From a virus: 22,410 nucleotides of DNA. The stretch is taken from the IMG/VR virus record IMGVR_UViG_3300009506_000203, one strand, 5' to 3'. A model generated the notes under the pieces. That model searched no databases. It worked only from the letters and a program-made list of their open reading frames with translations, and was not told where the DNA came from. Positions 2-22,410 of this stretch are shown piece after piece; within the stretch, counting starts at the first letter, position 1, and the number at the start of each line of letters is the position of its first letter. Both the position numbers and the translations under genes were made by a program.

Positions 2-958
2 GACCACGTCAACATCCGGCTGAAGCTGTCCCACCGGGTCAGCTTCGAGGGTGACCCCGAGAAGTGGTTCGACGTGGAGAACTACGTCAAGTTCCTGTGC
101 GACCACGTCCGGTCGGTGCTCAAGGGCGCCGTCAAGCGGATGACCGTCGAGAGCTTCTACGAGAACGCTGTGGACTTCGTCCGCGATACGATTCTCGGGA
201 AGGCCGAGGAGAAGGCCGGTCGGCCAGGCATGGTGTTCGAGGAGAACGGCATGCGCATCGTGGACATCGAGGTGCTGAGCATCCAGATCGTGGATCAGAC
301 GGTGTCCCAGCTGCTCGCGCAGGCGCAGCATGATGTCGTCGCCGGCAACATCATGCTCGACAAGGAGCGGCGCCAGCTGGTACTGACCCAGGAGCGTGAG
401 CGTGTCGCGCGCGAGCGCCGCGAGGCCGAGTACGAGACCGCCGCCCACGGGCTGAAGCTCACGTCGCAGCAGATCGCGGCCGAGCTTCAGGTCGAGATCG
501 AGCGGGCCAACAGCCAGCTCCAGCAGCAGAACAAGGAGAAGCAGGCCGTCGTGGCGGCCCGCGAGGCGATCTCCGACACCGAGCACAAGGCCAGCCTGGA
601 TCGGATCCAGGCGACCGAGCAGCAGCGGCTCAACGTCAAGAAGTCCGAGATCGACCTCCAGCGCGAGAGCCTGGAGGCCGAGGCCAACTCCGTGGTCAAG
701 CGGTTCGAGGCGCTTCAGCCACGGTTCACCGAGGCGCTGCTGGCGCTCCGCGACAGCCGCACCATCGAGGCCGTGGCCGAGGCGTGGAGCATGAACCGGG
801 TCGTCGGCGGCGCCAGCGTGGCCGACGCGCTGAGCACGGTGTTCAAGAACACCCCGCTCGGTGGGATCGCGCAGCGGCTCGCTGGCAGCAACGGCGAGTC
901 CGCTACGGTCGTTCCCGAGCCGCCGCAGCCGCCGACGAGGCCGCGTAGCCGGTCGTAG
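2..958 (+). CDS. SPFH/band-7 (flotillin-like) domain protein, 5'-truncated by the window edge
   Basis: The reading frame is open from nt 2, and listed ORF 74..958 is only its in-window Met-to-stop part. The block IVDIEVLSIQIVDQTVSQLLAQAQ followed by a long Q/E/R-rich coiled coil is typical of the C-terminal half of SPFH proteins. GC3 is high. Confidence 0.5.
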   Translation, partial: DHVNIRLKLSHRVSFEGDPEKWFDVENYVKFLCDHVRSVLKGAVKRMTVESFYENAVDFVRDTILGKAEEKAGRPGMVFEENGMRIVDIEVLSIQIVDQTVSQLLAQAQHDVVAGNIMLDKERRQLVLTQERERVARERREAEYETAAHGLKLTSQQIAAELQVEIERANSQLQQQNKEKQAVVAAREAISDTEHKASLDRIQATEQQRLNVKKSEIDLQRESLEAEANSVVKRFEALQPRFTEALLALRDSRTIEAVAEAWSMNRVVGGASVADALSTVFKNTPLGGIAQRLAGSNGESATVVPEPPQPPTRPRSRS

Positions 959-960
959 CG

Positions 961-1176
961 ATGCCTGACATCACGATGTGTACTGGAGGGGACTGCCCGT
1001 TCAAGGGCAACTGCTGGCGTGCTACGGCCACGCCGACGCCTATGCGCCAGTCCTGGTTCGAGGCGCCGCCGTTCCGTAAGGGACCTGGCGTGGACCGTGC
1101 AGGTGACGAGTTCGCCTGCTGCGCAGTAGACTCGTCGGTGGTCTCCTGCACCTACTACATCGATGACCGCTCCTAG
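961..1176 (+). CDS. small Cys-rich protein (CTGGDCPFKGNCWR...CC...C), possible metal-binding
   Basis: The ATG lies 2 nt after the upstream stop, suggesting coupling. It has 8 Cys in 71 aa. It is followed by a strong terminator. Confidence 0.45.
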   Translation: MPDITMCTGGDCPFKGNCWRATATPTPMRQSWFEAPPFRKGPGVDRAGDEFACCAVDSSVVSCTYYIDDRS

Positions 1177-1180
1177 ACAA

Positions 1181-1222
1181 GCCGGGGCCGGCGCCCTGCC
1201 ATCCACGCCGGCCCCGGTTTTG
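1181..1222 (+). terminator. intrinsic terminator (11-bp GC stem 1182-1192/1207-1217, then TTTT)
   Basis: CCGGGGCCGGC and GCCGGCCCCGG form a perfect inverted repeat followed by TTTTG, directly after the stop at 1176. Confidence 0.6.
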
Positions 1223-1251
1223 TCACCCCAGTCTGCTAACGTGCCCCCATC
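1218..1251 (+). promoter_or_regulatory. conserved cassette TTTGTCAC-N5-TCTGCTAA (copy A) preceding the operon head
   Basis: TTGTCAC at 1220-1226 and TCTGCTAA at 1232-1239 sit 12 nt upstream of ATG 1252. Copy B at 5116-5135 has identical spacing. TAACGT (1237-1242) is a possible -10. Confidence 0.4.
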
Positions 1252-1827
1252 ATGATCGCCGGGATCACAGGCCACCGGCCCTTGAAGCTAGGTGGCTACG
1301 ACGAACCCATGCGTGAGATTCTGGTCGAGACGCTGGCCGGACTTCTTGTCCGTGACGGCGCGACTCGTGGAGTCACCGGCATGGCCATCGGCGCTGATCA
1401 ATACTTCGCCGAGGCGTGCCTGTCTTTGCGCATTCCCTTCACGGCCGCGGTCCCCTTCGAGGGCCAGGAATCTAGGTGGCCGCCAGCTGCACAGCGCAAC
1501 TACCACAGGCTGCTCGCACTGGCCGCCAGCGTCGTCTACGTCTCGCCGCCGGGCTACGCCTTGTGGAAGATGCAGGCACGCAACCAGTGGGTGGTCGATC
1601 ACTGCGATCAACTCTACGCCGTCTGGGACGGCAGCACGGGCGGCACCGCCAACACGGTCATCTTGGCCAACAGGGCTCAGAGGATCGTGGAAGTCATCAA
1701 CCCAAGAGAGCTGATACATGCCCAACGAAACCCCCAACGATCAGCCGAGCGAAGACAGCCGGCCCTGGTGGCAACTGGTTCGCGTACAAGCCTTCGGCGG
1801 CCGGGTAAAGGAGCTGGAGACGCCTGA
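1252..1827 (+). CDS. YpsA/DUF1273-like SLOG-domain protein
   Basis: The N-terminal ITGHRP...LGG, the GMAIGADQYFAEA and the NQWVVDHCDQLYAVWDG blocks match the YpsA family pattern recalled from memory. The last ~36 codons overlap the next gene out of frame and have lower GC3. Confidence 0.5.
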   Translation: MIAGITGHRPLKLGGYDEPMREILVETLAGLLVRDGATRGVTGMAIGADQYFAEACLSLRIPFTAAVPFEGQESRWPPAAQRNYHRLLALAASVVYVSPPGYALWKMQARNQWVVDHCDQLYAVWDGSTGGTANTVILANRAQRIVEVINPRELIHAQRNPQRSAERRQPALVATGSRTSLRRPGKGAGDA

Positions 1828-2275
1828 GCTACGCGCCATCCACGAGGAGATTCAAGGAGCCGTACTGGGATTGCAGGGGGAGATAGAAGCCGAGAGCTAC
1901 GAGCTGCAAGTGGTCCGCGACCTGGCCCGCAAGCTTGGACCAGCCATCGCTTTCGATGCAGATCGGTTTGCTGCGGCCATCGTGAAGGAGTACGAGATTG
2001 CGCTCGACGAAGCGCATGAGATGGTGGACACCTTCGACTGGTGGCAGCGCGCGCGGAAGGCGCTCGGCTTCATGAAGCAGAAGCAGTCCATCGTCAGCGC
2101 CGAGGTAGCCCGCCGCCGAGCTGGCGATGCGGAGCAAGCTGTGTTCGCCATCAAAGGCAAGGTCAAGAAAGCCTCCTTGCTGCTCACTCGAATCCGCAGC
2201 AAGAACTCAGCCCTCGCCGAGGCCCGCAAGCTCATCGACGAGGTCGAATCACATCTGGACAAGGTAGGACCATGA
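1718..2275 (+). CDS. hypothetical protein (185 aa)
   Basis: It has an ATG start, high GC3 from the start, and an ATGA overlap with the next gene. Confidence 0.5.
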   Translation: MPNETPNDQPSEDSRPWWQLVRVQAFGGRVKELETPELRAIHEEIQGAVLGLQGEIEAESYELQVVRDLARKLGPAIAFDADRFAAAIVKEYEIALDEAHEMVDTFDWWQRARKALGFMKQKQSIVSAEVARRRAGDAEQAVFAIKGKVKKASLLLTRIRSKNSALAEARKLIDEVESHLDKVGP

Positions 2276-3172: not shown

Positions 3173-3756
3173 AGCAACGCGTGACGGCCACTGGCGTGGT
3201 CAACTGGGAAGGCACCGACCTCGATCCAGCTCGGGATGAGTTGATCGACGAGCGGTTCTTGCGCCCATCGATCGTGCGCGAGTTCATCCGTGCGACTGCA
3301 CCGAGCAAAGATGCTGCGAGCTGCCCCTGCTGTGGCCAGTTCGCCAAGGTCTACAAGCGGCACATCACAGGCGCGATGGCATGTGCTCTGATTCAGATCT
3401 ACCGGTACTACTGGAAGAACGCCTGGACTACCGAGTGGCTGCATGTCCCCGAGTACCTCGCGGCGCAGAAGATGCCCGCCAAGGTCAAAGCGGGTTGGCA
3501 CGGTGGAGATTGGTCGAAGCTCCGCTTCTGGCAGCTCATCGAGCCGAAGGACGACGAGCGCGCGGATGGTTCTCCTCGGGTCGGCTTCTACCGCATCACT
3601 GACCTCGGTCGGGACTTCGTCGAGCGCAAGATGGAGGTCCCCAAGTACGTCTTCCTCTACGCGAAGACACCGCTCGGGCTCGCGCTGCCCTACATCACCA
3701 TCGAGGACGCGCTCGGCGCTTCGTTTAGCTACAGCTCCTTGATGGACGGCATCTAA
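3169..3756 (+). CDS. hypothetical protein with a CPCCG motif (195 aa)
   Basis: ATG 3169 overlaps stop 3172 (ATGA). The listed ORF 3040..3756 is an upstream extension in the same frame. Confidence 0.5.
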   Translation: MKQRVTATGVVNWEGTDLDPARDELIDERFLRPSIVREFIRATAPSKDAASCPCCGQFAKVYKRHITGAMACALIQIYRYYWKNAWTTEWLHVPEYLAAQKMPAKVKAGWHGGDWSKLRFWQLIEPKDDERADGSPRVGFYRITDLGRDFVERKMEVPKYVFLYAKTPLGLALPYITIEDALGASFSYSSLMDGI

Positions 3757-3811
3757 CGCACCGATTCAACTCCAGTAGCCAGATACCTCACCCGGAAATG
3801 GTATCGCGACG

Positions 3812-3842
3812 TACACTCCGCCAATTGATCGCAGCTGCGATC
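3812..3842 (+). promoter_or_regulatory. -10-like TACACT (3812-3817) followed by palindrome GATCGCAGCTGCGATC (3827-3842, site 1)
   Basis: The 16-bp perfect palindrome lies in the 106-bp gap before gene 3863. The -10-like hexamer ends 9 nt upstream, and GGGGG (the SD) follows the palindrome. Confidence 0.4.
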
Positions 3843-3862
3843 CCATTTTCCAGGGGGTCACT

Positions 3863-4435
3863 ATGTTCCTTTTGCTTGTACTTCTCAGCGCGTTTCTAGC
3901 GCCCATTCAAACAGCGCAGATTCCGACTGGTGGCTCCATGCGCACGAGTCGCGGCATCTCGACGATCTTCGGCTACTACGGTGACCGCTATGGCCGAAGC
4001 CCAACTCGCTGCCTCTACGATGATGACGGCAACAAGCGCCCCGTTGATCCCGAGCACGATATCGGCATCGCGCACCGCGATCTAGACTGTGGCGCGGTCG
4101 TCTACATCACCAACCTGGAGACCGGGCTGTCGATCCGAGCTGTGGTCGTGGATGCAGGACCGTGGGGCGCGATGTCGAAGAACGCCGCTGGCAAGCCGAT
4201 CTGGTACGTCAAAAAGAACACGAATGCTCGGCCAGGCCGCGATGTCTGCCCTTCGAGGAAGTGCCCGGTCGGCCGCTGGCGCGGGATAGCCGACCTCACG
4301 CCCAAAGCGGCTGAGCTGCTCGGCCACGACGGCTGGGCGAAGATCGTCCTCACCTATGACAAGCGCGACCTGCGCAGCTACAAACGGCTTCAGAAGGCCA
4401 AAGAGGCTCACGAGGACAGGAGGAACCAGAGCTGA
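3863..4435 (+). CDS. secreted RlpA-like double-psi beta-barrel (DPBB) protein
   Basis: The N-terminal signal peptide is MFLLLVLLSAFLAPIQTA. YYGDRYGRSPTRCLYDD...IGIAHRDLDCGAVVYITNLETGLSIRAVVVDAGPWG matches the RlpA DPBB pattern. Confidence 0.6.
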   Translation: MFLLLVLLSAFLAPIQTAQIPTGGSMRTSRGISTIFGYYGDRYGRSPTRCLYDDDGNKRPVDPEHDIGIAHRDLDCGAVVYITNLETGLSIRAVVVDAGPWGAMSKNAAGKPIWYVKKNTNARPGRDVCPSRKCPVGRWRGIADLTPKAAELLGHDGWAKIVLTYDKRDLRSYKRLQKAKEAHEDRRNQS

Positions 4436-4809
4436 TGCGACGCGTGATCATCGAGAGTCCCTACGCCGGCAACATCGAGGAGAACCTGGCCTACGTCCGC
4501 GCAGCGATGAAGGACAGCTTGAGTCGAGGTGAAGCTCCATTCGCATCCCATGCGTTGTACACGCAGCCTGGCGTCCTCAACGACGATGTCCCCGAGGAGC
4601 GCGAATGGGGCATCCATGCGGGGTTCGCATGGCGAGCTGCTGCCGAGGCGACCGTCGTCTACACCGACTACGGCATCTCGAAGGGCATGACATACGGCAT
4701 CGAAGCCGCGCAGAAAATGGGACAGCCGGTCGAGTACCGCACGTTGACGGCCGCAGCCCTGGCAGTGCTGAAGGCGATCAGCGAGTCATCACAGCCAGTA
4801 CCAGCCTAG
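4435..4809 (+). CDS. DUF4406 / nucleoside 2-deoxyribosyltransferase-like protein
   Basis: The N-terminus VIIESPYAGNIEENLAYVRAA resembles the AGPxSG...N motif of NDT-like phage proteins. There is a TGATG overlap with the upstream gene. Confidence 0.4.
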   Translation: MRRVIIESPYAGNIEENLAYVRAAMKDSLSRGEAPFASHALYTQPGVLNDDVPEEREWGIHAGFAWRAAAEATVVYTDYGISKGMTYGIEAAQKMGQPVEYRTLTAAALAVLKAISESSQPVPA

Positions 4810-7204: not shown

Positions 7205-7622
7205 GATCCGGTCCATCACTCCGCTTACGATCACTCAGGGCTACGTCTTCGTCGAGCCCGGTGAGCTGCGACTGCGCGAGCAGGGCGACATCCAGTTCGT
7301 CGTGACGGTCAAGGACGATGGCAACCTCGCGCGTCGTGAGTGGTCAACAGAGGTCCCACGCTGGGCGTTCGACCTGCTGTGGCGTCAGACTGAGGGGCGT
7401 CGGCTGCGCAAGCTCCGCCGTATCGTCAAGACTGAGAAGCACACTCTCGAAGTCGATGAGTACGTGGGCAGCCTGACTGGCCTGTTCATCCTCGAAGTCG
7501 AGTTCCCGAGCGAGGCAGCCGCCGCAGCGTTCGAGCTTCCATGGTGGGGCCGAGACGCGCAGGAGGTCACGCAGGACCCGGCCTACAAGAACAAGCGGCT
7601 GGCGGTCAGCGGGCGACCTTGA
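7155..7622 (+). CDS. CYTH-domain (triphosphate tunnel metalloenzyme) protein
   Basis: The N-terminal MSMEIERKFLL is the CYTH EIERKFL signature. GAGGA lies 12 nt upstream. There is a 50-nt overlap with the upstream gene. Confidence 0.55.
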   Translation: MSMEIERKFLLPSLPAEIRSITPLTITQGYVFVEPGELRLREQGDIQFVVTVKDDGNLARREWSTEVPRWAFDLLWRQTEGRRLRKLRRIVKTEKHTLEVDEYVGSLTGLFILEVEFPSEAAAAAFELPWWGRDAQEVTQDPAYKNKRLAVSGRP

Positions 7623-8267: not shown

Positions 8268-9651
8268 CGAGCCCGACCTCGACTTCTCGAACCTGCCCGT
8301 CATCGAGCTGGAGTACACGGTCCCCGAGGACGACACCAGCCTGTTCCTCGTTCCGGCCGCGCGGCTGCCCTACCTGCTGGAGCGTATCAAGAAGCTCCAG
8401 AGCCGCCAGAAGCGGCTCGCGAAGGTTGGGCCGCTGGCGGACGCGGCGTTGATCACTGTCGAGGTGACCGCGCGGCAGCTCCGGCCGCCACGGTGCATCT
8501 TCTGCGGGCACGACCAGGTCCCGGCGCACTACAACGACGGCCGCTGCAAGTACGCCGCGGGGTACTGGCGTCCCGGCTCGCCGCGCGTCTACTACCTGTG
8601 CCGCGTCGAGGGTCCGCGCGCCAAGCTCGCCGACTGGGAGTTCATCGCGACTCTCCAGCACGAGGATGCAGGAACCATCCTCCGTGCTGTTCCGGGCGCT
8701 GAGATCGCCGAGGGTGAGCTGGACCGCTTTCGCAACGTGAAGCCGCATTGCGAGCACTGCAACGCTCGCCGCTACCGCAAGGACTCGTTCGTGGTCCGGC
8801 ACGATGACGGTACTCTCCGTCAGGTCGGCCGCACCTGCCTGGGCAAGTACCTGGGTGGCGGCGTCGATCCGAAGGCTATCGCGCGGCTCGCCGAGCTGCT
8901 CATCGAGGCCCGCGGCGCCGCCGATGAGGAGCCCGAGCTGGGCTGGGGGTCCGGCGGCCCGCTCGTCGGCCCGATCAGCGACTTCCTCATCTTCGTCGCT
9001 GCCTGCATCCGGCTCGAAGGCTGGCTGCCGCGCAGCAAGGCCGGGGACGACGAGGTCCCGACCGCAGACCGCGCCTGGGCGCTTCAGTTCCCCTGGTCCC
9101 AGAAGGGTCGTGAGGAAGCGGAGCGCTTCCGCAACCAGATCGAGGACCGCGATGTCGAGCTGGCCCAGGCCGCACTCGACTGCGTTCGGCGCGAACTGAA
9201 CGAGCACAACACCCGCAGCGACTATGAGCACAACCTGCGCGTCGCCTGCGCTGCTGATGTCGTCAAGGGCCGCACCGCTGGCCTGGCGGCCTCGGTGGTG
9301 ACCTGGTACGAGCGGCGCCTGGTCCACGAGCAGCGCCGCCAGGCCGCGCAGAGAGCGGCTCGAAGGGCTGCCAAGCACTCTGAGCACGTCGGCGCAGTCG
9401 GCGACATGATCAACGTCGTCGTGACCGTCCGCGGGATCTCCGATGGCTTCACCGACTACGGTGCCTACCACTTCCACCGCTTCGTCGATGTGAACGACAA
9501 CAACATCATTTGGCGCTCGACCCGTGAGCGGCTCGAAGTCGGCGCGACCTACGAGCTGCGCGGCAAGATCAAGGAGCACGGTGAGTGGAAGGGTATCAAG
9601 CAGACCCAGCTGACTCGGTGCCGGGTCCTCAACAAGATCGACAAGAACTAG
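8257..9651 (+). CDS. large hypothetical protein with C4 zinc ribbons (464 aa)
   Basis: GGAGG lies 6 nt upstream of ATG 8257. It has CIFCG...C and CEHCN...C motifs and a C-terminal beta-rich domain. The upstream part of listed ORF 8134..9651 is S/T-rich off-frame sequence. Confidence 0.55.
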   Translation: MFRDEPDLDFSNLPVIELEYTVPEDDTSLFLVPAARLPYLLERIKKLQSRQKRLAKVGPLADAALITVEVTARQLRPPRCIFCGHDQVPAHYNDGRCKYAAGYWRPGSPRVYYLCRVEGPRAKLADWEFIATLQHEDAGTILRAVPGAEIAEGELDRFRNVKPHCEHCNARRYRKDSFVVRHDDGTLRQVGRTCLGKYLGGGVDPKAIARLAELLIEARGAADEEPELGWGSGGPLVGPISDFLIFVAACIRLEGWLPRSKAGDDEVPTADRAWALQFPWSQKGREEAERFRNQIEDRDVELAQAALDCVRRELNEHNTRSDYEHNLRVACAADVVKGRTAGLAASVVTWYERRLVHEQRRQAAQRAARRAAKHSEHVGAVGDMINVVVTVRGISDGFTDYGAYHFHRFVDVNDNNIIWRSTRERLEVGATYELRGKIKEHGEWKGIKQTQLTRCRVLNKIDKN

Positions 9652-13086: not shown

Positions 13087-13120
13087 AGCGTGAGTCTACA
13101 CCATGATCGCGGCTGCGATC
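13087..13120 (-). promoter_or_regulatory. palindrome site 2 (GATCGCGGCTGCGATC, 13105-13120) followed by GTGTAGACT promoter
   Basis: The palindrome abuts the stop of the upstream minus gene. On the minus strand, the -10 is 6 nt downstream of the palindrome. Confidence 0.45.
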
Positions 13121-13770
13121 TACTTTCGAGGGCGGCGTGGCCGGAAAGAGACGCGTGCCTGGACGGGCTCGCAGTTATAGCCCCATTCCGACAGTGAGTT
13201 GCCGTCCGTCCGAAGGCACGCGGCTGGGACTCGCTTCGAGAGCACACACATGTCCTGGGACGGGTCGGTCCCGTGCCGGCCGTGCTGGATCGCGTAGTCT
13301 CGGGACGTGGTCACCCAGTCGCCGTTGTTGATTTCGCGGACATCGCAGGGAACGGCGCGGTACATCCAGACGCGCGCATCTGGCCGACCTCGGACCCGGC
13401 TCGCGACGTGGAAAGACTCCCAATCGGTCGGTCCGTAGGCGTACCAGTCGGGGCGCCGATAGACATCGTCCGGGTAGACACCGTTGTCGGTCAGATCGTA
13501 GAGCGGCGCGCCTTCCTCACCCGCGGGCCGGTGTTGCATCCCGTAGTCATCCGGCGCCGCGCCGAACAGCCCGCGTAGGCCGCGGACCAAGCCACGTAGC
13601 AACCCGAAGCCGCGGAACTGGGGCCGCTGCTCCGCGTAGCTCGACGCGACGACGTAGCCGTTGGCGATCTTCTCGGCGTGTCGCTCGGCCTGGTCAGGAA
13701 ACTGGTAGACGGCGACCTGTCGAGGGCCGATACCAGGGCGATACTTGAACACCTTGTAGAAGGTTGCCAT
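13120..13770 (-). CDS. hypothetical protein (216 aa)
   Basis: The internal ATG at 13770 has a GAGGA SD and forms a TGATG overlap with the NUDIX stop. The listed ORF 13120..13842 is an upstream extension in the same frame. Confidence 0.5.
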   Translation of the reverse strand: MATFYKVFKYRPGIGPRQVAVYQFPDQAERHAEKIANGYVVASSYAEQRPQFRGFGLLRGLVRGLRGLFGAAPDDYGMQHRPAGEEGAPLYDLTDNGVYPDDVYRRPDWYAYGPTDWESFHVASRVRGRPDARVWMYRAVPCDVREINNGDWVTTSRDYAIQHGRHGTDPSQDMCVLSKRVPAACLRTDGNSLSEWGYNCEPVQARVSFRPRRPRK

Positions 13771-14168
13771 CAGTTCCTCACGAACAGCTCGACGCCCGGG
13801 TGCAGCGGCTGTGGAAGTTGGCCTGGATAGAACCACCCCCAAGCGTCATTCTCCCAGTTGAGTCGCGGCTGCCATCGAGCTGCGGCCCCGGTTGGGATGG
13901 TCGCGATGACGGTCGTGAAAACCCCGCGCGGTGTGCCATCCCTACGGAGGGTGCGCGATGGATGAAAGCTCACGAGCTGCATCGGGGGTAGACTGCCGGT
14001 CTCCTCCTGGAACTCTCGAAGCGCCGTCGCGATTAGGTCGGTATCGCCTGCATCTTCGCGGCCGGCTGGAATCGACCACCAGCCGGGCTCGCTGACCTGC
14101 TGGGACCGTCGGACAAGCAGGACGGCGCCATCATCTCGGACGAGAAGGATGCCAGCGCACTGAGGCAT
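13770..14168 (-). CDS. NUDIX hydrolase
   Basis: REFQEETG is the core of the Nudix box, preceded by PAGREDAGDTD. It is about 130 aa long. Confidence 0.7.
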   Translation of the reverse strand: MPQCAGILLVRDDGAVLLVRRSQQVSEPGWWSIPAGREDAGDTDLIATALREFQEETGSLPPMQLVSFHPSRTLRRDGTPRGVFTTVIATIPTGAAARWQPRLNWENDAWGWFYPGQLPQPLHPGVELFVRN

Positions 14169-17528: not shown

Positions 17529-17536
17529 GTTGGCTC

Positions 17537-18034
17537 CTACCGGTGGTGGCGGCGACCGCTCAGCTCGACTGGTGGCGGACATGCGACCGGGCGGGGCTTG
17601 CGCTCCTTCTTCAACCGCTGGAAGCCAGCAGCGCGCCCTCTCTCAATGCCGGCCTTCACGCCCTTCGTCTGCGGGACCTCACCGAGGATCCGCTCAGGTG
17701 GAATGGGCTCGCTGGTCATGTAGAACTCAGGCAGGTTCGGCGACCGCAACGGCCGGTAGACCGGGCAGTGCTCTTTGGTCCCGACGATCCTCACCTTGAG
17801 GATGGTTAGGGGCTCGTCGGGGCAGCCCTCCCTGACGGCCCGCTTCGCGATGTGCTCTGCGGCGTAGTTCGGGCTCCGCGTGAACCAGATGTCGCCCCGC
17901 GGGCCCTTCCTCAATCCCTGCTTCTTGATGAGGCTCGCACGGAGCTTGTAGGTCCCGTGGTAGCCCACGAAGTCACACTTGCCGAAGGGCTGGACCTCGA
18001 CCCACTTGCCTAGCTGGCGGCGTCGCCTTGACAT
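17537..18034 (-). CDS. minimal Tpt1/KptA-like (NAD-dependent ADP-ribosyl/2'-phosphotransferase fold) protein with a basic C-terminal tail
   Basis: VGYHGTYKLRASLIKKQGLRKGPRGDIWFTRS...EPLTILKV parallels KptA LYHGTASRFLDEIKKQGL...RHYVHLS...SPVILTV. The N-terminal RNA-binding lobe is absent. The start is leaderless at ATG 18034. Confidence 0.4.
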   Translation of the reverse strand: MSRRRRQLGKWVEVQPFGKCDFVGYHGTYKLRASLIKKQGLRKGPRGDIWFTRSPNYAAEHIAKRAVREGCPDEPLTILKVRIVGTKEHCPVYRPLRSPNLPEFYMTSEPIPPERILGEVPQTKGVKAGIERGRAAGFQRLKKERKPRPVACPPPVELSGRRHHR

Positions 18035-18073
18035 GGGCCCCAGTATACACGGTCTCGGATCGCAGCTGTGATC
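18035..18073 (-). promoter_or_regulatory. leaderless promoter GTGTATACT plus palindrome site 4 (GATCGCAGCTGTGATC, 18058-18073)
   Basis: On the minus strand, TATACT ends 7 nt before ATG 18034. The palindrome lies 10 nt upstream of the -10, in the -35 position. Confidence 0.45.
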
Positions 18074-18246
18074 GAGCGGCCTGCGACCGGGCCCGCGGTC
18101 GAACCCGCGGCCGAGACATCGAGACAGCGATACCGGAGCGGGGCCATCCCCCCGAATCGCCACGGGGTGGCGGCACAGTTCTGTGCAGGCCCACTGAGAT
18201 GTGCTCTACTGGTGGCGGAGACGTTCGAGGTGGCTGGGTGCCGCGG

Positions 18247-18284
18247 CGCCCGCCAGGCTGAGCTGGTCTGGCGGGCGTCATTTT
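18247..18284 (+). terminator. intrinsic terminator-like hairpin (10-bp stem CGCCCGCCAG/CTGGCGGGCG, then TCATTTTG)
   Basis: It is a perfect inverted repeat with a T-run, and no plus-strand CDS lies upstream. Confidence 0.45.
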
Positions 18285-18440
18285 GCCGGCCTTCGAGCCG
18301 CCCGAGCTGGCCGCCCCGCGCAGCTCGTGTGGGCTCCTGTCGCGCCCATGGCCGAGCTGGTTGGGCCGCGCGGCCAGCGCCCGCGACGAGGCCACAGAGG
18401 CGCTCCTGGAGCGTCCTGGAGGGCATGCACTATACGCCCG

Positions 18441-18720
18441 ATCGGAAGATCCAATTTTGGGGGTCTAACTACCTTGATCGGGCCCTTTTTCGGCCCGTTT
18501 CCCCTTTGATTACCGGCCTGTGTAGGTGATCGTTACTCAGGGTTAGATCCCTCCCCTACCCCTTATAGATCCGCTGGTACATCTATCAACTTTTCATAGA
18601 TTTACTAGCCGAAACTAAGGAGGGTATAGGGACTTCTAACCTTGTAGATTTCGGGTGTTTTCAGTAGGGATCTCACGGAGATCAAGGTCCCCCTCCAATT
18701 GTTAGTGGTACGGCGCGTCA
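18441..18720. repeat. AT-rich (about 45-50% GC) repeat island
   Basis: It contains TCTAAC twice and GGTTAGA as inverted copies. It has three YRTAGATYY direct repeats, a GATCTC-acg-GAGATC palindrome, and an orphan AAGGAGG. Confidence 0.4.
18479..18505 (+). terminator. hairpin CGGGCC-ctttttc-GGCCCG followed by TTTCCCCTTTGATT
   Basis: It has a 6-bp GC stem and a T-rich tail, at the edge of the AT-rich island. Confidence 0.4.
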
Positions 18721-18796
18721 AAGTTGAAATGTAGTCGTGGCAACGGGTAGTACACTGCAAGAAAGTCACTGGCCCTTGCGGCCGGTGACTGTGAAT

Positions 18797-18868
18797 GTCG
18801 TTGACGTGCTATGTCAACGTCGCACGCTGTCGTTGCACGTCGCGAGCGTGCCGTGTACGATCCCAACG
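18797..18868 (+). promoter_or_regulatory. operator repeats plus a sigma70-like promoter TTGCAC-17-TACGAT for the RHH-AP2 gene
   Basis: Direct repeats TGTCGTTGACGT (18797-18808) and TGTCGTTGCACGT (18829-18841) flank the inverted copy GTCAACG (18813-18819). The -10 at 18856-18861 ends 7 nt before ATG 18869. Confidence 0.45.
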
Positions 18869-19561
18869 ATGCCGCCGAAGCACCGTCTCACGGTTCGCAT
18901 GGAGGATGACCTCTATGACTACCTGCATCAACGCGCGGCACGAAATTTCCGCACGGCACCCGACGAAGTGCAGGCGATCGTATTTGCGCTGAGGGCTGCT
19001 GAGCGCGCTGCGGATACCTCTCCGTTGCCGTCGTCCGAGCTGCCGGCCGTGCTGACGGGCGCTTCCGACGCGGGACCTGAAGCGGAGCCCGAGGCGCCCC
19101 CCGAGCCCGGTGTGACCCACAAGCTCCGCGGCCCGCGCGGCACCCTCTCGGGCTACTTCGGCGTACACCGGTACGGGAAGCGTTGGATAGCCAAGCTGAC
19201 CAGAAATGGTGTAGCGACAAAGGTCGGTGTGTTCGACGACCCGGAGGAAGCTGCCCAAGCCTACGACGACGCCGTCAGGACCAGCGGAACTGGCGGCCGG
19301 CTCAACTTCCCGACGGAGCAGGAGGAAGCTGCACGGTCCAGCGGCGGCTTGGAGACGCTGCCTGACTGGATCCGCGTGCAGGGGCCCGGAGCGTCGGACA
19401 TCCCCCCAGAGCATCTTCCTGAAGCTCTACGGCGTGGTCTCATCGCGTCCGGCGAGATGGACGTGCCGCCAGTCGAGGACCACTACGAGGCGCCCTCTGA
19501 TGAGGACGCGGACCTGGTCCCGGACCCGGACATCGACCCCGATCCGCCCTCCCTCCACTGA
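18869..19561 (+). CDS. ribbon-helix-helix + AP2 DNA-binding domain regulator
   Basis: The N-terminal RLTVRMEDDLYDYLHQRAARNF is an RHH beta-strand and helix. GYFGVHRYGKRWIAKLTRNGVATKVGVFDDPEEAAQAYDDAV is an AP2 domain. The upstream 44 codons of listed ORF 18737..19561 cover the operator repeats. Confidence 0.6.
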   Translation: MPPKHRLTVRMEDDLYDYLHQRAARNFRTAPDEVQAIVFALRAAERAADTSPLPSSELPAVLTGASDAGPEAEPEAPPEPGVTHKLRGPRGTLSGYFGVHRYGKRWIAKLTRNGVATKVGVFDDPEEAAQAYDDAVRTSGTGGRLNFPTEQEEAARSSGGLETLPDWIRVQGPGASDIPPEHLPEALRRGLIASGEMDVPPVEDHYEAPSDEDADLVPDPDIDPDPPSLH

Positions 19562-19570
19562 GGCTGTGTG

Positions 19571-19603
19571 GGCGCCCCTCACTTGGGGGAAGCGAGGGGC
19601 GCC
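19571..19603. terminator. 10-bp GC stem-loop (GGCGCCCCTC/GAGGGGCGCC) between convergent genes
   Basis: It is a perfect inverted repeat with no clear U-tract. It may act as a bidirectional terminator. Confidence 0.4.
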
Positions 19604-19688
19604 GATAGGGTGCTGGGTTTCAGCCACCGGGCGGGCGGCGTTGACTCTTGATCTCTAGCAGAAAGTGTGCGGGGCGCGCAATTGAATT

Positions 19689-19704
19689 GATCGTGTGAGC
19701 GATC
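19689..19704. promoter_or_regulatory. palindrome-family site 5 (GATCGTGTGAGCGATC)
   Basis: It has the GATCG-N6-CGATC arms and overlaps the stop of the minus gene 19703..19951. Confidence 0.3.
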
Positions 19705-19951
19705 AGGCTCCCTTGAGCTTCGAGCGCCGCAGCCGGAGCGCGGTCCCGTTGGCCAGCATCACGGCCGGCTTACCGCGGAACTCGCACACGTAGGCGAAGC
19801 CGCCGGTTGGAATGCTTCGCCCCTTTCCAACGTAGGGCTTCCCGGAGATCTGGACGAAGCTCGCGTCGCCCTGGTGCTGGACCGGGATGTCCCGACAGGT
19901 CTCTAGATCCCAGCCGATCTCGCGTCGTCGGTGCCGACCCAGCCTCGTCAT
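19703..19951 (-). CDS. hypothetical protein (82 aa), leaderless
   Basis: On the minus strand, CGTGATAGATT ends 6 nt before ATG 19951. Confidence 0.4.
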   Translation of the reverse strand: MTRLGRHRRREIGWDLETCRDIPVQHQGDASFVQISGKPYVGKGRSIPTGGFAYVCEFRGKPAVMLANGTALRLRRSKLKGA

Positions 19952-20038
19952 GAGGCCAATCTATCACGAAGCAGAAACCGCCACCAGGCGTCGAAACGCT
20001 GTGGGACCGCGCTGGAGCGTCAGGATTAAAGAAGCGCA

Positions 20039-20812
20039 TCAGCGCAAGGATACCACGCGGTAGCCTTCGATGTGCACGTAGAGCAACGTCCCATCAGGTG
20101 GCCGCGGGTCTTCCTTCTTGGAGCGCTTCGTGAACCCAATGTCGAACTGGCCGTCGAAGTTCTGTCGCGGTGGGATGAAGACATCGAGCGGCTGCGGACG
20201 TAGTTGGAGCTGGTGTGCAAGGCCCGTTGCTATCGTCCTGCCGCCAAGATGCAGCGTGACAGCGCCGTAGAGCGGTTGGACAGCGGGGAGTGTCGTCACG
20301 TAGAAGTGGGTCGCGAACGCGATGTCGTCGCCCCAGACGAGCTGACCGGCTACTGTAAGGTTCGTCCGCTCGACGGCGCCAACGTTCGCGTTGCTGAATA
20401 ACCGGACTCGACTGAACTCTCCGAAGATGCCTCCGAACTCGATCGAGTCGTAGACGTGAAGACGCTGGAGGTCGTTGACGCGGATCTTCCGGTCGTCATC
20501 TACGCTGTCCATGAAGCGCTTGAGCAGCCAGGATGGAGCTTCGTCGAGCCGCCGTAGGTCCCGCAACAATCGAGCAGCGCGCACAGCCAGGTCACCAGGG
20601 CTGCTGGACTCCTGGCGCTTGATTCGCTCGATGATGGTCTCTTGGGCCTCGTCAGGCAGCGCATCCCAGGGCTGCGGGATCCCCTCGGCATCGCACCAGA
20701 GTGAACCGAGCAGACCCATTCGGTAGCGGTCTACTATCTCCGTAGCTACGTCGAGCTTGCCGACGACGGCAGCCGCTTCGGCTGCGTCCAGTACATCGTC
20801 GAGGTCGGACAC
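20039..20812 (-). CDS. hypothetical protein (257 aa)
   Basis: It has a GTG start. It is long and coding-like, with a divergent promoter region upstream. Confidence 0.5.
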   Translation of the reverse strand: MSDLDDVLDAAEAAAVVGKLDVATEIVDRYRMGLLGSLWCDAEGIPQPWDALPDEAQETIIERIKRQESSSPGDLAVRAARLLRDLRRLDEAPSWLLKRFMDSVDDDRKIRVNDLQRLHVYDSIEFGGIFGEFSRVRLFSNANVGAVERTNLTVAGQLVWGDDIAFATHFYVTTLPAVQPLYGAVTLHLGGRTIATGLAHQLQLRPQPLDVFIPPRQNFDGQFDIGFTKRSKKEDPRPPDGTLLYVHIEGYRVVSLR

Positions 20813-20820
20813 GCAGGCAG

Positions 20821-20852
20821 TTTGTCACAGCGGTGTGACAGACTAGCCGGCC
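20821..20852. promoter_or_regulatory. palindrome TGTCACA-gcgg-TGTGACA in a divergent intergenic region (contains TTTGTCAC)
   Basis: The arms are at 20823-20829 and 20834-20840. Each arm gives a GTGACAnACT -10-like element pointing at the flanking start codons. Confidence 0.35.
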
Positions 20853-21083
20853 ATGGCAATCATGCGATGGAATGTCCGGGTCGTGCGCGTCGAAGCGAGT
20901 GGCGAGGAGCGCTTCGAGTTTCACGAGGTAGAGCAAGATGAAGGCAAGGCGCCGCACGCGATCCACCGCGAGCAGTTCGACACCGACGGCAAAGACGTGA
21001 AGGAGCTTTACGACCGGCTCCGTCACATGCTCGGCGCCATCAACCAGCCCGTGCTCAACATGGGCGACTACCCCGACCGATGA
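20853..21083 (+). CDS. hypothetical protein (76 aa)
   Basis: It has an ATG start and an ATGA overlap with the next gene. Confidence 0.45.
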   Translation: MAIMRWNVRVVRVEASGEERFEFHEVEQDEGKAPHAIHREQFDTDGKDVKELYDRLRHMLGAINQPVLNMGDYPDR

Positions 21084-21316
21084 AGTACCACCTCCAGATA
21101 TCAACTGCGAAGCTCAGCATGCGCATCGTCTCCTTCGAGGAGCACAACGACTACGCAGCGATGGGAATCGCGGCCAAGTTCTGTACTGCGGACCAGGTCG
21201 GCGTTGAGCTGCTCGAAGGCGAGGGCCGACCAGTCGCGTGCTGGTTCTGGAGCATCGACAAAGAGGCTGCAATCCAATCGCGTGACTACACGCAGCAGGG
21301 AGGGACGCATGAGTGA
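21080..21316 (+). CDS. hypothetical protein (78 aa)
   Basis: It is coupled to the upstream gene by an ATGA overlap. Confidence 0.45.
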   Translation: MKYHLQISTAKLSMRIVSFEEHNDYAAMGIAAKFCTADQVGVELLEGEGRPVACWFWSIDKEAAIQSRDYTQQGGTHE

Positions 21317-21740
21317 GTTCGTACTTCAGCCGTGGGTGGCCGACGTTGGCTTGAAGATGCAGAGCATCCTGCTCTCTGGCCTGCGCGCCCCAGACGCGTC
21401 AACTAAAGCCGTGAAGCTCGCGGTGCGGTGGCTGCGCAGCAAGTGCCAGCTCGATGCCGACCCGAAGAAGCAGTCCTACATGCAGACGGTGGACATGAAC
21501 CGCCGGCTCATCGACCCCGCGATGGATGAGCTGGAGTACCTGCCTGTCCACTACGTGCATCACCTGGCCGACGCGTTCGCGGTCGTGGCCTACCACCACC
21601 CCAACGAGCTGGTAGCCAAGATGGCCTACGAGTTCCACGAGCAAGTAGCCGTCGAGCTGTTCCACTTCCACCCCGAGACGAAGGAGGAGTTCCTGGAGCG
21701 GCACAAGGACAAGCGAGAGCCCCAGGGAGGTCCAGCGTGA
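21309..21740 (+). CDS. hypothetical protein (143 aa, His-rich)
   Basis: ATG 21309 overlaps the upstream stop by 8 nt. The listed ORF 21204..21740 is an upstream extension. Confidence 0.45.
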   Translation: MSEFVLQPWVADVGLKMQSILLSGLRAPDASTKAVKLAVRWLRSKCQLDADPKKQSYMQTVDMNRRLIDPAMDELEYLPVHYVHHLADAFAVVAYHHPNELVAKMAYEFHEQVAVELFHFHPETKEEFLERHKDKREPQGGPA

Positions 21741-22410
21741 TCGTCCTGTTCACGGGGATGTCAGGCGCGGGCAAGACAACGCTCGCGAAGGCACTGGAGG
21801 TCGAGCTGCGCGAGCACGGGTACTACGTGAAGCGGCTCGACGGCGACACGATGCGCGAGGACCCATTGTGCAGTGGTCTGGGCTTCTCGAAGGAGGACCG
21901 CATCGAGAACATTCGCCGGCTGGGGATGCGCGCCAGGTCGCTAATAGATGCTGGCGTCGAGATCGTACTCATCGCCGCGATTGCGCCCTACGCGGAGTCA
22001 AGATCTGATCTTCGAGTGCACCCGAGATACCCCTTCTGCGAGATCTTCGTTGACTGTCCAATGGACGTGCTCATCGAGCGAGATCCGAAAGGGCTCTACA
22101 AGCTCGCACTCGCAGGGCAGCTCAAGCACTTCACCGGTGTGTCGGATCCGTATGAGGAGCCCGAGGCCCCCGATTTGCACCTCCGAACTGACCGCGACCA
22201 CGTAACGCCATGCGTGAGAGAGTGCTCGGAGTACATCAGGGCGCGCGTCCTCAAAGCAGGGCCCGGAGCACCCGAGGCCGTTGTCACCACCAACGGCTTG
22301 CAGCCAGCACAAACTGAGGTGCTGGCCTTGCTGGCCGAGGAGTGCGGTGAGGTCATTCAGGTCGTCGGCAAGATCCTCCGCAACGGACTCAACGGCCGAC
22401 ACCCCGACGG
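21737..22410 (+). CDS. cysC: adenylyl-sulfate (APS) kinase, 3'-truncated by the window edge, with an extra C-terminal helical region
   Basis: It is not in the ORF table because it has no stop in the window. GTG 21737 has a GGGAGG SD and a GTGA overlap with the upstream stop. LFTGMSGAGKTTLA, LDGDTMR, LGFSKEDRIENIRR, FCEIFVDCPMDVLIERDPKGLYKLALAGQLKHFTGVSDPYEEPEAPDLHL match the APS-kinase motifs. Confidence 0.8.
   Translation, partial: MIVLFTGMSGAGKTTLAKALEVELREHGYYVKRLDGDTMREDPLCSGLGFSKEDRIENIRRLGMRARSLIDAGVEIVLIAAIAPYAESRSDLRVHPRYPFCEIFVDCPMDVLIERDPKGLYKLALAGQLKHFTGVSDPYEEPEAPDLHLRTDRDHVTPCVRECSEYIRARVLKAGPGAPEAVVTTNGLQPAQTEVLALLAEECGEVIQVVGKILRNGLNGRHPD

Follow-up and report, generated by a model that had tools for sequence, protein, structure and literature searches.

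The last open reading frame (ORF) of the virus record IMGVR_UViG_3300009506_000203, a stretch of 22,410 nucleotides from IMG/VR that was analysed at its full length and is called the window hereafter, very probably encodes a genuine adenosine 5′-phosphosulfate (APS) kinase (CysC, EC 2.7.1.25), with its activity predicted, and continues in frame beyond the kinase into what reads as the first half of a phage MazG-type nucleoside triphosphate (NTP) pyrophosphohydrolase of about 100 amino acids (aa). We assign both domains with high confidence. Phage cysC genes are already known; the kinase-MazG domain architecture is new, is probably incidental and comes from a single contig. The overall explanation that we favour, with moderate confidence, is that of an active cysC gene belonging to the phage lineage, to which a MazG domain has become joined in frame as an incidental event.

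The frame opens at GTG 21737 on the forward strand and proceeds without a stop codon for 224 codons, up to base 22410. A Shine-Dalgarno (SD) sequence, GGGAGG, can be read six bases 5′ of this start (21725..21730, +), and the start itself overlaps the stop codon of the preceding ORF (GTGA, 21737-21740). The three ORFs upstream also overlap one another (20853-21083, 21080-21316 and 21309-21740). A first-pass annotation of the same DNA had described an SD-preceded GTG start, a frame running off the end of the window and a translationally coupled operon, and the sequence agrees on each of these points. It had also made the kinase the last gene of that operon, a statement beyond what the window shows, since the contig ends inside this ORF; in L001, a related 90.5-kb contig from the Joint Genome Institute (JGI) that is syntenic with positions 17534-22410 of the window, the gene after the MazG ORF lies on the opposite strand.

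Residues 1-170 (21737..22246, +) constitute the APS kinase domain. The Pfam family APS_kinase (PF01583) is matched over residues 2-149 at E=7.5e-51, with 172.6 bits against a cutoff of 21.1 and an alignment spanning profile positions 4-151 of 152, and against the NCBIfam equivalog domain TIGR00455 the score is 188.4 bits (cutoff 138.7). Solved APS kinases are matched in 24 cases, with E-values down to 7.5e-25, the best match being the Synechocystis enzyme 5cb6 (E=3.6e-41). All hallmark blocks named in the first-pass annotation are present: the P-loop GMSGAGKTT at residues 7-15 (within GMSGAGKTTLA), LDGD at 34-37, ENIRR, DPKGLYK and FTGVSDPYE. The homology searches leave the product among the APS kinases and do not reassign it to another P-loop family.

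Alignment with the 120 best database homologues shows invariant columns for the P-loop (GxxGxGK[ST]T) and for LDGD, and of the 59 columns with a conservation of 90% or more the window kinase retains 50. The residues kept include K13 (the P-loop lysine), D35, D37, R40, F50, R55, N58, R61, R115, K118 (in the lid) and F132. The structure of Mycobacterium tuberculosis CysC provides roles for such positions, comprising the catalytic base, two arginines that hold the phosphosulfate, the residues that stack on adenine and the lid (PMC4373884). Residues R40, R55, F50, R115 and K118 align with Arg483, Arg497, Phe492, Arg559 and Lys562 of that enzyme, and the APS-binding set (R40, R55, F50, F132, R115 and K118) is conserved in full. 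Identity to bacterial CysC and other APS kinases (for instance Synechocystis 5cb6, M. tuberculosis 4bzq and the kinase domain of human PAPSS1, 2pey) is 44-57% over the full core, the core is of equal length, and every catalytic and substrate-binding residue has its counterpart in the window kinase. Unlike bacterial CysC, the window kinase has a very short N-terminus, with the P-loop beginning at residue 7; it is not fused to CysN or ATP sulfurylase, the usual partners, and it has no cys operon around it.

Past the kinase core, at about residue 170, the frame stays open into a helical segment, which the first-pass annotation had taken to be a further domain. That proposal is borne out, and the domain can be identified. 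Alignment with L001 and the map of starts and stops delimit a linker rich in Pro, Gly and Ala, VLKAGPGAPEAVVTT, at residues 171-185 (22247..22291, +), and residues 186-224 (22292..22410, +) read as the N-terminal part of a MazG-type NTP pyrophosphohydrolase truncated at the contig end. Residues 179-224 match phrog_4856 ('nucleoside triphosphate pyrophosphohydrolase') at E=1.2e-7, about 55 stand-alone ORFs on IMG/VR contigs, and a protein of Pseudomonas phage Lana, gp32, whose annotation reads NTP pyrophosphohydrolase. The 86 database homologues listed are all 85-177 aa long, and many of them are labelled MazG or NTP pyrophosphatase. In an alignment of 22 sequences, the window segment is in register with the N-terminus of the family and has the common invariant block LAEECGE...K..R.G...P, within which the first metal-binding motif (E-x-x-E, or EExGE) appears as EECGE at residues 201-205 and is invariant in the family alignment. 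The second metal motif, E-x-x-D, is ELGD in L001 and in all aligned homologues, at a position that falls beyond the contig end.

Profile and structure comparisons agree with this assignment. PF03819 (MazG) is matched by 21 of the 22 aligned family members; the 50-aa window fragment alone gives no Pfam match, and the MazG ORF of L001 obtains 22.8 bits against the PF03819 cutoff of 22. Searched against the PDB, the family profile matches Bacillus MazG (5ie9) and YpjD (2gta). For the AlphaFold model of a stand-alone homologue, P0122 (predicted local distance difference test score, pLDDT, of 92), the eight top-ranking PDB entries are DCTPP1, RS21-C6 and MazG proteins, with Foldseek probabilities of 0.84-1.0 and weak E-values of 0.06-0.4, which are usual for small helical bundles. 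The window segment is 60-82% identical to individual members of the group of small phage MazG proteins (PF03819; phrog_4856; Lana gp32; the cyanophage MazG of PMC6850273; Atd1), with residues 186-224 in register and EExGE shared. These are stand-alone proteins of 85-177 aa, whereas the window copy has no start of its own, is attached to a kinase and comprises the first half only. Phage MazG is known to hydrolyse dGTP and dCTP (PMC6850273), and with another such enzyme, Atd1, depletion of (p)ppGpp blocks abortive infection driven by TIR and protects against TIR-STING toxicity (bioRxiv 10.1101/2022.06.09.495361).

A single fused protein, rather than two overlapping genes, is in our judgement the best reading of the window, and one that we hold with considerable confidence. 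The comparison with L001 is informative here. In that contig the kinase (3737-4306) and the MazG ORF (4230-4535, +; 101 aa) are separate genes in different frames that overlap by 77 nucleotides, and MazG has its own AAGGAG seven bases before ATG 4230. Relative to the L001 junction, the window contains 12 + 15 + 8 = 35 extra nucleotides in a diverged stretch, and these 35 nucleotides put kinase and MazG into one frame. Where L001 has AAGGAG-N7-ATG, the window has sequence without a start codon. The linker (22247..22291) contains no in-frame ATG, and no SD-preceded start is found where stand-alone MazG genes begin. Alternative starts exist in frame at TTG 22298, GTG 22319 and TTG 22328, each of which either lacks an SD or would delete conserved N-terminal residues. 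The G+C content by codon position is alike in both domains, with values of 0.78/0.64/0.43 in the kinase and 0.78/0.77/0.37 in MazG. From sequence, we infer that the fusion protein would actually be made. As a separate matter of annotation, the JGI record starts the MazG gene of L001 too late, at ATG 4329 (68 aa), and so loses the conserved EECGE.

The kinase is also present at the matching locus in a second relative, L069, a 20.8-kb contig in which a neighbouring protein of 257 aa shows 70% identity. Identity of the window kinase is 61% to the L001 copy, which is the best kinase homologue (P0001), and 59% to that of L069, where no MazG is found at the kinase locus. The three relatives thus present three states of the locus: a kinase alone in L069, a kinase with an overlapping but separate MazG gene in L001, and the fusion in the window. 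Every pairwise comparison of the kinase gives a ratio of nonsynonymous to synonymous substitution rates (dN/dS) of about 0.2 (between L001 and L069, dN is 0.18 and dS is 0.90), and on this basis the kinase is a maintained gene of the lineage, under purifying selection and with an unstable 3′ end. Queries with the 257-aa neighbour protein, alone or as a two-sequence alignment, revealed no further lineage members in IMG/VR or metagenome contigs, and a protein-database search with it returned only L069, L001 and a contig of 3.2 kb. The L069 kinase (8967-9596, -; 209 aa) was missed by the Logan gene caller, which placed a 121-aa ORF on the other strand; the kinase ORF overlaps a convergent gene of 134 aa (8746-9150, +) by 184 nucleotides and thereby acquires some 40 aa of low-complexity tail.

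To place the architecture, kinase homologues were scanned with a local hidden Markov model (HMM) of the MazG family, taking the 120 best from a set of 5.8 billion proteins and the 150 best from 1.84 billion cluster representatives. None of these 270 best kinase homologues carries this MazG domain, and a kinase is found in none of the 86 MazG homologues listed. Where APS kinases are seen fused, the partner is the CysN GTPase, PUA_2/ATP sulfurylase or an AraC helix-turn-helix domain. Fusions of the type found in synthases of 3′-phosphoadenosine 5′-phosphosulfate (PAPS), namely ATP sulfurylase-APS kinase and CysN-CysC, likewise join an APS kinase covalently to a nucleotide-handling domain; they differ in that the partner in the window is an NTP pyrophosphohydrolase without a known step in sulfate activation. 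At the level of gene neighbourhoods, no kinase occurs within 10 kb at any of the 57 IMG/VR loci that have this MazG, and the only IMG/VR matches to the kinase are L004 and L005, from an AT-rich phage (about 30% GC) with no MazG or sulfotransferase nearby. An incidental joining of neighbours fits these results better than a conserved functional module, because adjacency of kinase and MazG is restricted to this lineage. The L004/L005 gene (9656-10504, +) is a 282-aa ORF with about 110 residues before its APS-kinase domain, and in its vicinity are genes for a GIY-YIG endonuclease and for a protein with pentapeptide repeats.

The first-pass annotation regarded an APS kinase as rare for phages. This is accurate for reference phages: PHROGs holds no APS-kinase family, the best match of the kinase part being a generic 'kinase' family at 26.6 bits, and the ORF matches 7 of 50,697 GenBank records, mostly dubious ones and in two cases through the MazG part only. 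As a general statement it is overstated, since cysC is a published viral auxiliary gene. A total of 62 cysC genes have been reported in 7,334 freshwater phage genomes, where they are commoner in larger genomes and are transcribed in situ (Chen & Banfield 2024, PMC10914622), and for viral cysC genes, conservation of motifs and purifying selection have been described (Kieft et al., bioRxiv 10.1101/2021.01.05.425418). The window shares with them a kinase domain set among phage accessory genes, an intact P-loop and DGD, and purifying selection, and their preference for larger phage genomes has its parallel in the 90.5 kb of L001. Unlike the published viral cysC genes, the window kinase is fused to a MazG-type domain and belongs to a clade with the substitutions S83A, D56I and W4L; no close relative of its phage lineage turns up in IMG/VR or among GenBank phages. 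Two GenBank records were considered as phage precedents and rejected: AGRM01000002, which is a Salmonella genome record, and MT839805.1 (L067, 'UNVERIFIED Bacteriophage sp.', 4 kb), whose neighbouring genes look bacterial. In the latter, a 203-aa CysC is found beside a QueE-like radical S-adenosylmethionine protein and a 516-aa permease. To our knowledge, no phage cysC has been biochemically characterised to date.

The window, with a G+C content of 63%, looks like phage accessory DNA, in keeping with the phage-like context described in the first-pass annotation. It contains matches to phrog_2319, phrog_2693, phrog_13834, phrog_6660 and phrog_3362, the first through a protein of 505 aa that is 'RecT-like' in the Tunturiibacter phage Tunturi_5, and most of its ORFs have no match. 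Viral genes occur on both sides of the kinase, as PHROG-positive genes upstream in the window and, downstream, in the syntenic contigs L001 and L069, where the kinase is followed by small ORFans, a terminase-like/DUF87 ATPase, an endolysin-like protein and a peptide deformylase. The search for near-identical DNA in GenBank phages found none.

We propose that the kinase belongs to an uncultivated phage lineage with genomes of about 90 kb and that, during infection, it would take APS from the ATP sulfurylase of the host, together with ATP, and convert it to PAPS. PAPS production would raise the supply of activated sulfate in the host, which is the scenario put forward for viral cysC as an auxiliary metabolic gene (AMG). 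The small, all-alpha MazG domain, appended through a linker of some 15 residues, would independently hydrolyse nucleotides, be they (d)NTPs or alarmones. Most likely, local indels removed the stop codon of the kinase and the SD and ATG of MazG, and the fusion would be a side effect of such changes where stop codons are scarce. The kinase and MazG activities probably work independently, and the fusion would therefore reflect neighbourhood and not pathway. Both the enzymatic activities and the physiological role are predictions, and for the assimilation role specifically we see the case as evenly poised.

A number of observations weigh against this explanation. The fused junction is seen in one assembly only, the JGI contig that constitutes the whole window of 22,410 bp and breaks within the most conserved block of the MazG domain. 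An independent Logan contig of the same phage (SRR14699975_181634, 99.9% identical), which covers approximately positions 335-21403 of the window, stops at 21403, about 330 nucleotides 5′ of the kinase. Neither in IMG/VR nor among JGI metagenome contigs or GTDB genomes did DNA searches find an exact match to the junction or the end sequence, and an exact look-up of the 257-aa protein of the window under its JGI identifier retrieved nothing; the downstream genes, which are phage-like, are known from the relatives. The junction, at a highly conserved block of MazG, may be chimeric or the product of an assembly error. Strain-level variation in the accessory region is suggested too, because the JGI and Logan assemblies both break there. 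The C-terminus of the kinase differs in all three relatives, through antisense read-through in L069, an out-of-frame overlap in L001 and the fusion in the window, which fits an accidental fusion without selected function.

Other such observations concern the enzyme and its setting. The substitutions W4L, D56I and S83A, common to the window, L001 and L069, fall at near-invariant positions; S83A changes I-S-P to I-A-P at a site where 118 of the 120 homologues have Ser, and a K/R123L change with a one-residue insertion is found in the window kinase alone. In M. tuberculosis CysC, Ile523 and Ser524, which correspond to I82 and S83 in the present numbering, touch APS through main-chain nitrogen (PMC4373884). 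Since the Ser524 contact is made by the main chain, S83A should be tolerated and is not obviously disabling. The structure paper on the M. tuberculosis enzyme was the only literature found on the role of the I-S-P serine. Ser-to-Ala mutants of the Penicillium enzyme reportedly stay active. As regards the fate of PAPS, the examined part amounts to about one third of a genome of approximately 90 kb. Domains of sulfotransferase, ATP sulfurylase and PAPS reductase were found neither in the scanned window ORFs nor in the precomputed Pfam calls of the Logan copy, nor in the 10 kb downstream in L001 or the 20.8 kb of L069. If the host reduces APS directly, with no CysC step, an assimilation role makes little sense.

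Some of these observations lend themselves to other explanations. The in-frame fusion could be an artefact of assembly or sequencing, or MazG could be translated from an internal start, in which case there would really be two proteins as in L001. The separate genes of L001 were assembled identically in two samples, the window junction lies in just one contig, which breaks off 120 nucleotides further on, and the break falls within a block that many phages have conserved; of the three internal in-frame starts, moreover, TTG 22328 has GAGG eight bases upstream. Against this, the difference from L001 consists of three indels of 12, 15 and 8 nucleotides in a diverged stretch and not of a homopolymer slip, the SD and ATG used by the L001 MazG are not present in the window, the candidate internal starts carry the defects described above, and the pattern of G+C by codon position is continuous through both domains. 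We consider an artefact or an internal start unlikely. A different account of the locus, also raised in the first-pass annotation, is that the window leaves a prophage at its right end and runs into a biosynthetic cluster or into the sulfate-assimilation genes of the host. Ordinary bacterial CysC, at 45-57% identity, are indeed the nearest kinases of cellular origin, but an alignment of the clade kinases searched against the 185,579 genomes of GTDB retrieved only ordinary CysC, the best of them just 46% identical. No tRNA, no integrase match and no change in GC content or skew toward the right end were found in the window, and the right end is simply that of the contig. The ordinary host cysNDC cluster that the first-pass annotation had named as a refuting outcome was not found either: no cysD, cysN or cysH adjoins the kinase, whose neighbours are phage ORFans, and in L001 and L069 genes of the phage lineage flank it on both sides. 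We therefore give the prophage account next to no credence.

What the kinase is for can be construed in other ways as well. PAPS is the universal sulfuryl donor, and in bacteria that reduce APS directly CysC is used for sulfation only. The kinase could accordingly supply PAPS to a sulfotransferase of the phage or the host that acts on a glycan, a small molecule or a virion component, and the inspected part makes up about one third of the relative's genome of some 90 kb. The sulfotransferase that the first-pass annotation expected nearby was, however, found in none of the four sources inspected, and a literature search found no phage in which an APS kinase is paired with a sulfotransferase, so that we regard this use of PAPS as decidedly unlikely. 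Nor need the kinase-MazG protein serve sulfur assimilation at all: it might be an enzyme of nucleotide remodelling or counter-defence, for example by 3′-phosphorylating another adenylate, or by raising PAPS or adenosine 3′,5′-bisphosphate (pAp) while MazG removes alarmones or signalling nucleotides. The abundance of nucleotide-handling accessory genes nearby (NUDIX, YpsA-SLOG, MazG), the precedent of Atd1 and the clade-specific substitutions at near-invariant kinase positions are consistent with such a role. The residues that bind the phosphosulfate and the adenine of APS are nevertheless all conserved, the adjacency of kinase and MazG is confined to this lineage (0 of 57 IMG/VR MazG loci), and MazG is lacking both from the cysC phages L004 and L005 and from L069, which does carry the kinase; a role of this kind appears very improbable. 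Of much the same low probability, in our view, is a selected bifunctional enzyme that couples adenylate 3′-phosphorylation (yielding PAPS or pAp, or acting on a substrate other than APS) to pyrophosphohydrolysis of NTPs or alarmones, an enzyme that would serve to alter nucleotide signalling in the host or to weaken abortive-infection defence.

The genes that precede the kinase differ in their conservation. The first gene of the overlapping chain (20853..21083, +) is a called gene encoding 76 aa that matches phrog_21321 at E=3e-6 and that also precedes the kinase in the relatives, with 68% identity to the L001 copy and 71% to that of L069. It is followed by a called gene of 78 aa (21080..21316, +) whose start overlaps the preceding stop (ATGA). 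This ORF has no Pfam or PHROG match and is not found in L001 or L069, and because it is absent from both it is a window-specific insertion. The third ORF, of 143 aa (21309..21740, +), overlaps the previous gene by 8 nucleotides and the kinase start by its stop (GTGA), and it has no homologue in L001 or L069.

Elsewhere in the window, genes for a YpsA-SLOG protein (1252-1827, +), a NUDIX hydrolase (13770-14168, -), a protein with a ParB C-terminal domain (13120-13770, -), a BubE-family protein (PF20137; 11533-11835, +) and an AP2/HNH-like protein (18899-19561, +) form a cluster of nucleotide- and DNA-handling functions that could be an anti-defence or takeover region. At the left end lies a partial ORF of 318 codons (2-958, +) that matches the Pfam family MVP_shoulder at E=4e-17 and has a G+C content of 0.93 at third codon positions. 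Its residues 1-312 align with residues 533-881 of eukaryotic major vault protein, in the shoulder and cap-helix, and its PDB matches include 9z4w (E=4e-7) as well as 4hl8 and 7pkz; a homologue of the major vault protein on a phage-like contig is unusual.

The downstream regions of the two relatives offer further observations. The terminase-like/DUF87 ATPase of L001 (6044-7780, -) is a protein of 578 aa that matches phrog_2666 at E=3e-21. In L069, positions 7407-7602 encode only the first 37 and the last 28 residues of this protein, adjoining each other, for a difference of about 513 codons in frame that could be due to a large insertion or deletion or to a mobile insert. L069 also contains, at 609-2009 (+), an ORF of 466 aa with intein-splicing and LAGLIDADG homing-endonuclease domains, which adjoins the gene for peptide deformylase.

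The locus otherwise brings together ordinary elements, a known class of auxiliary gene beside an enzyme that is very common in phages. Provided that the fusion exists and is expressed, its architecture is one that is unseen among the closest public APS kinases or MazG proteins, and were the bifunctional reading true, it would represent a new phage module for counter-defence or takeover instead of a sulfur-assimilation gene. The comparison of L069, L001 and the window provides a snapshot of how a gene fusion originates in the accessory regions of high-GC phages, and the fusion would offer a compact construct with which to study what phage cysC genes, now widely counted as 'sulfur-cycling AMGs', actually do.

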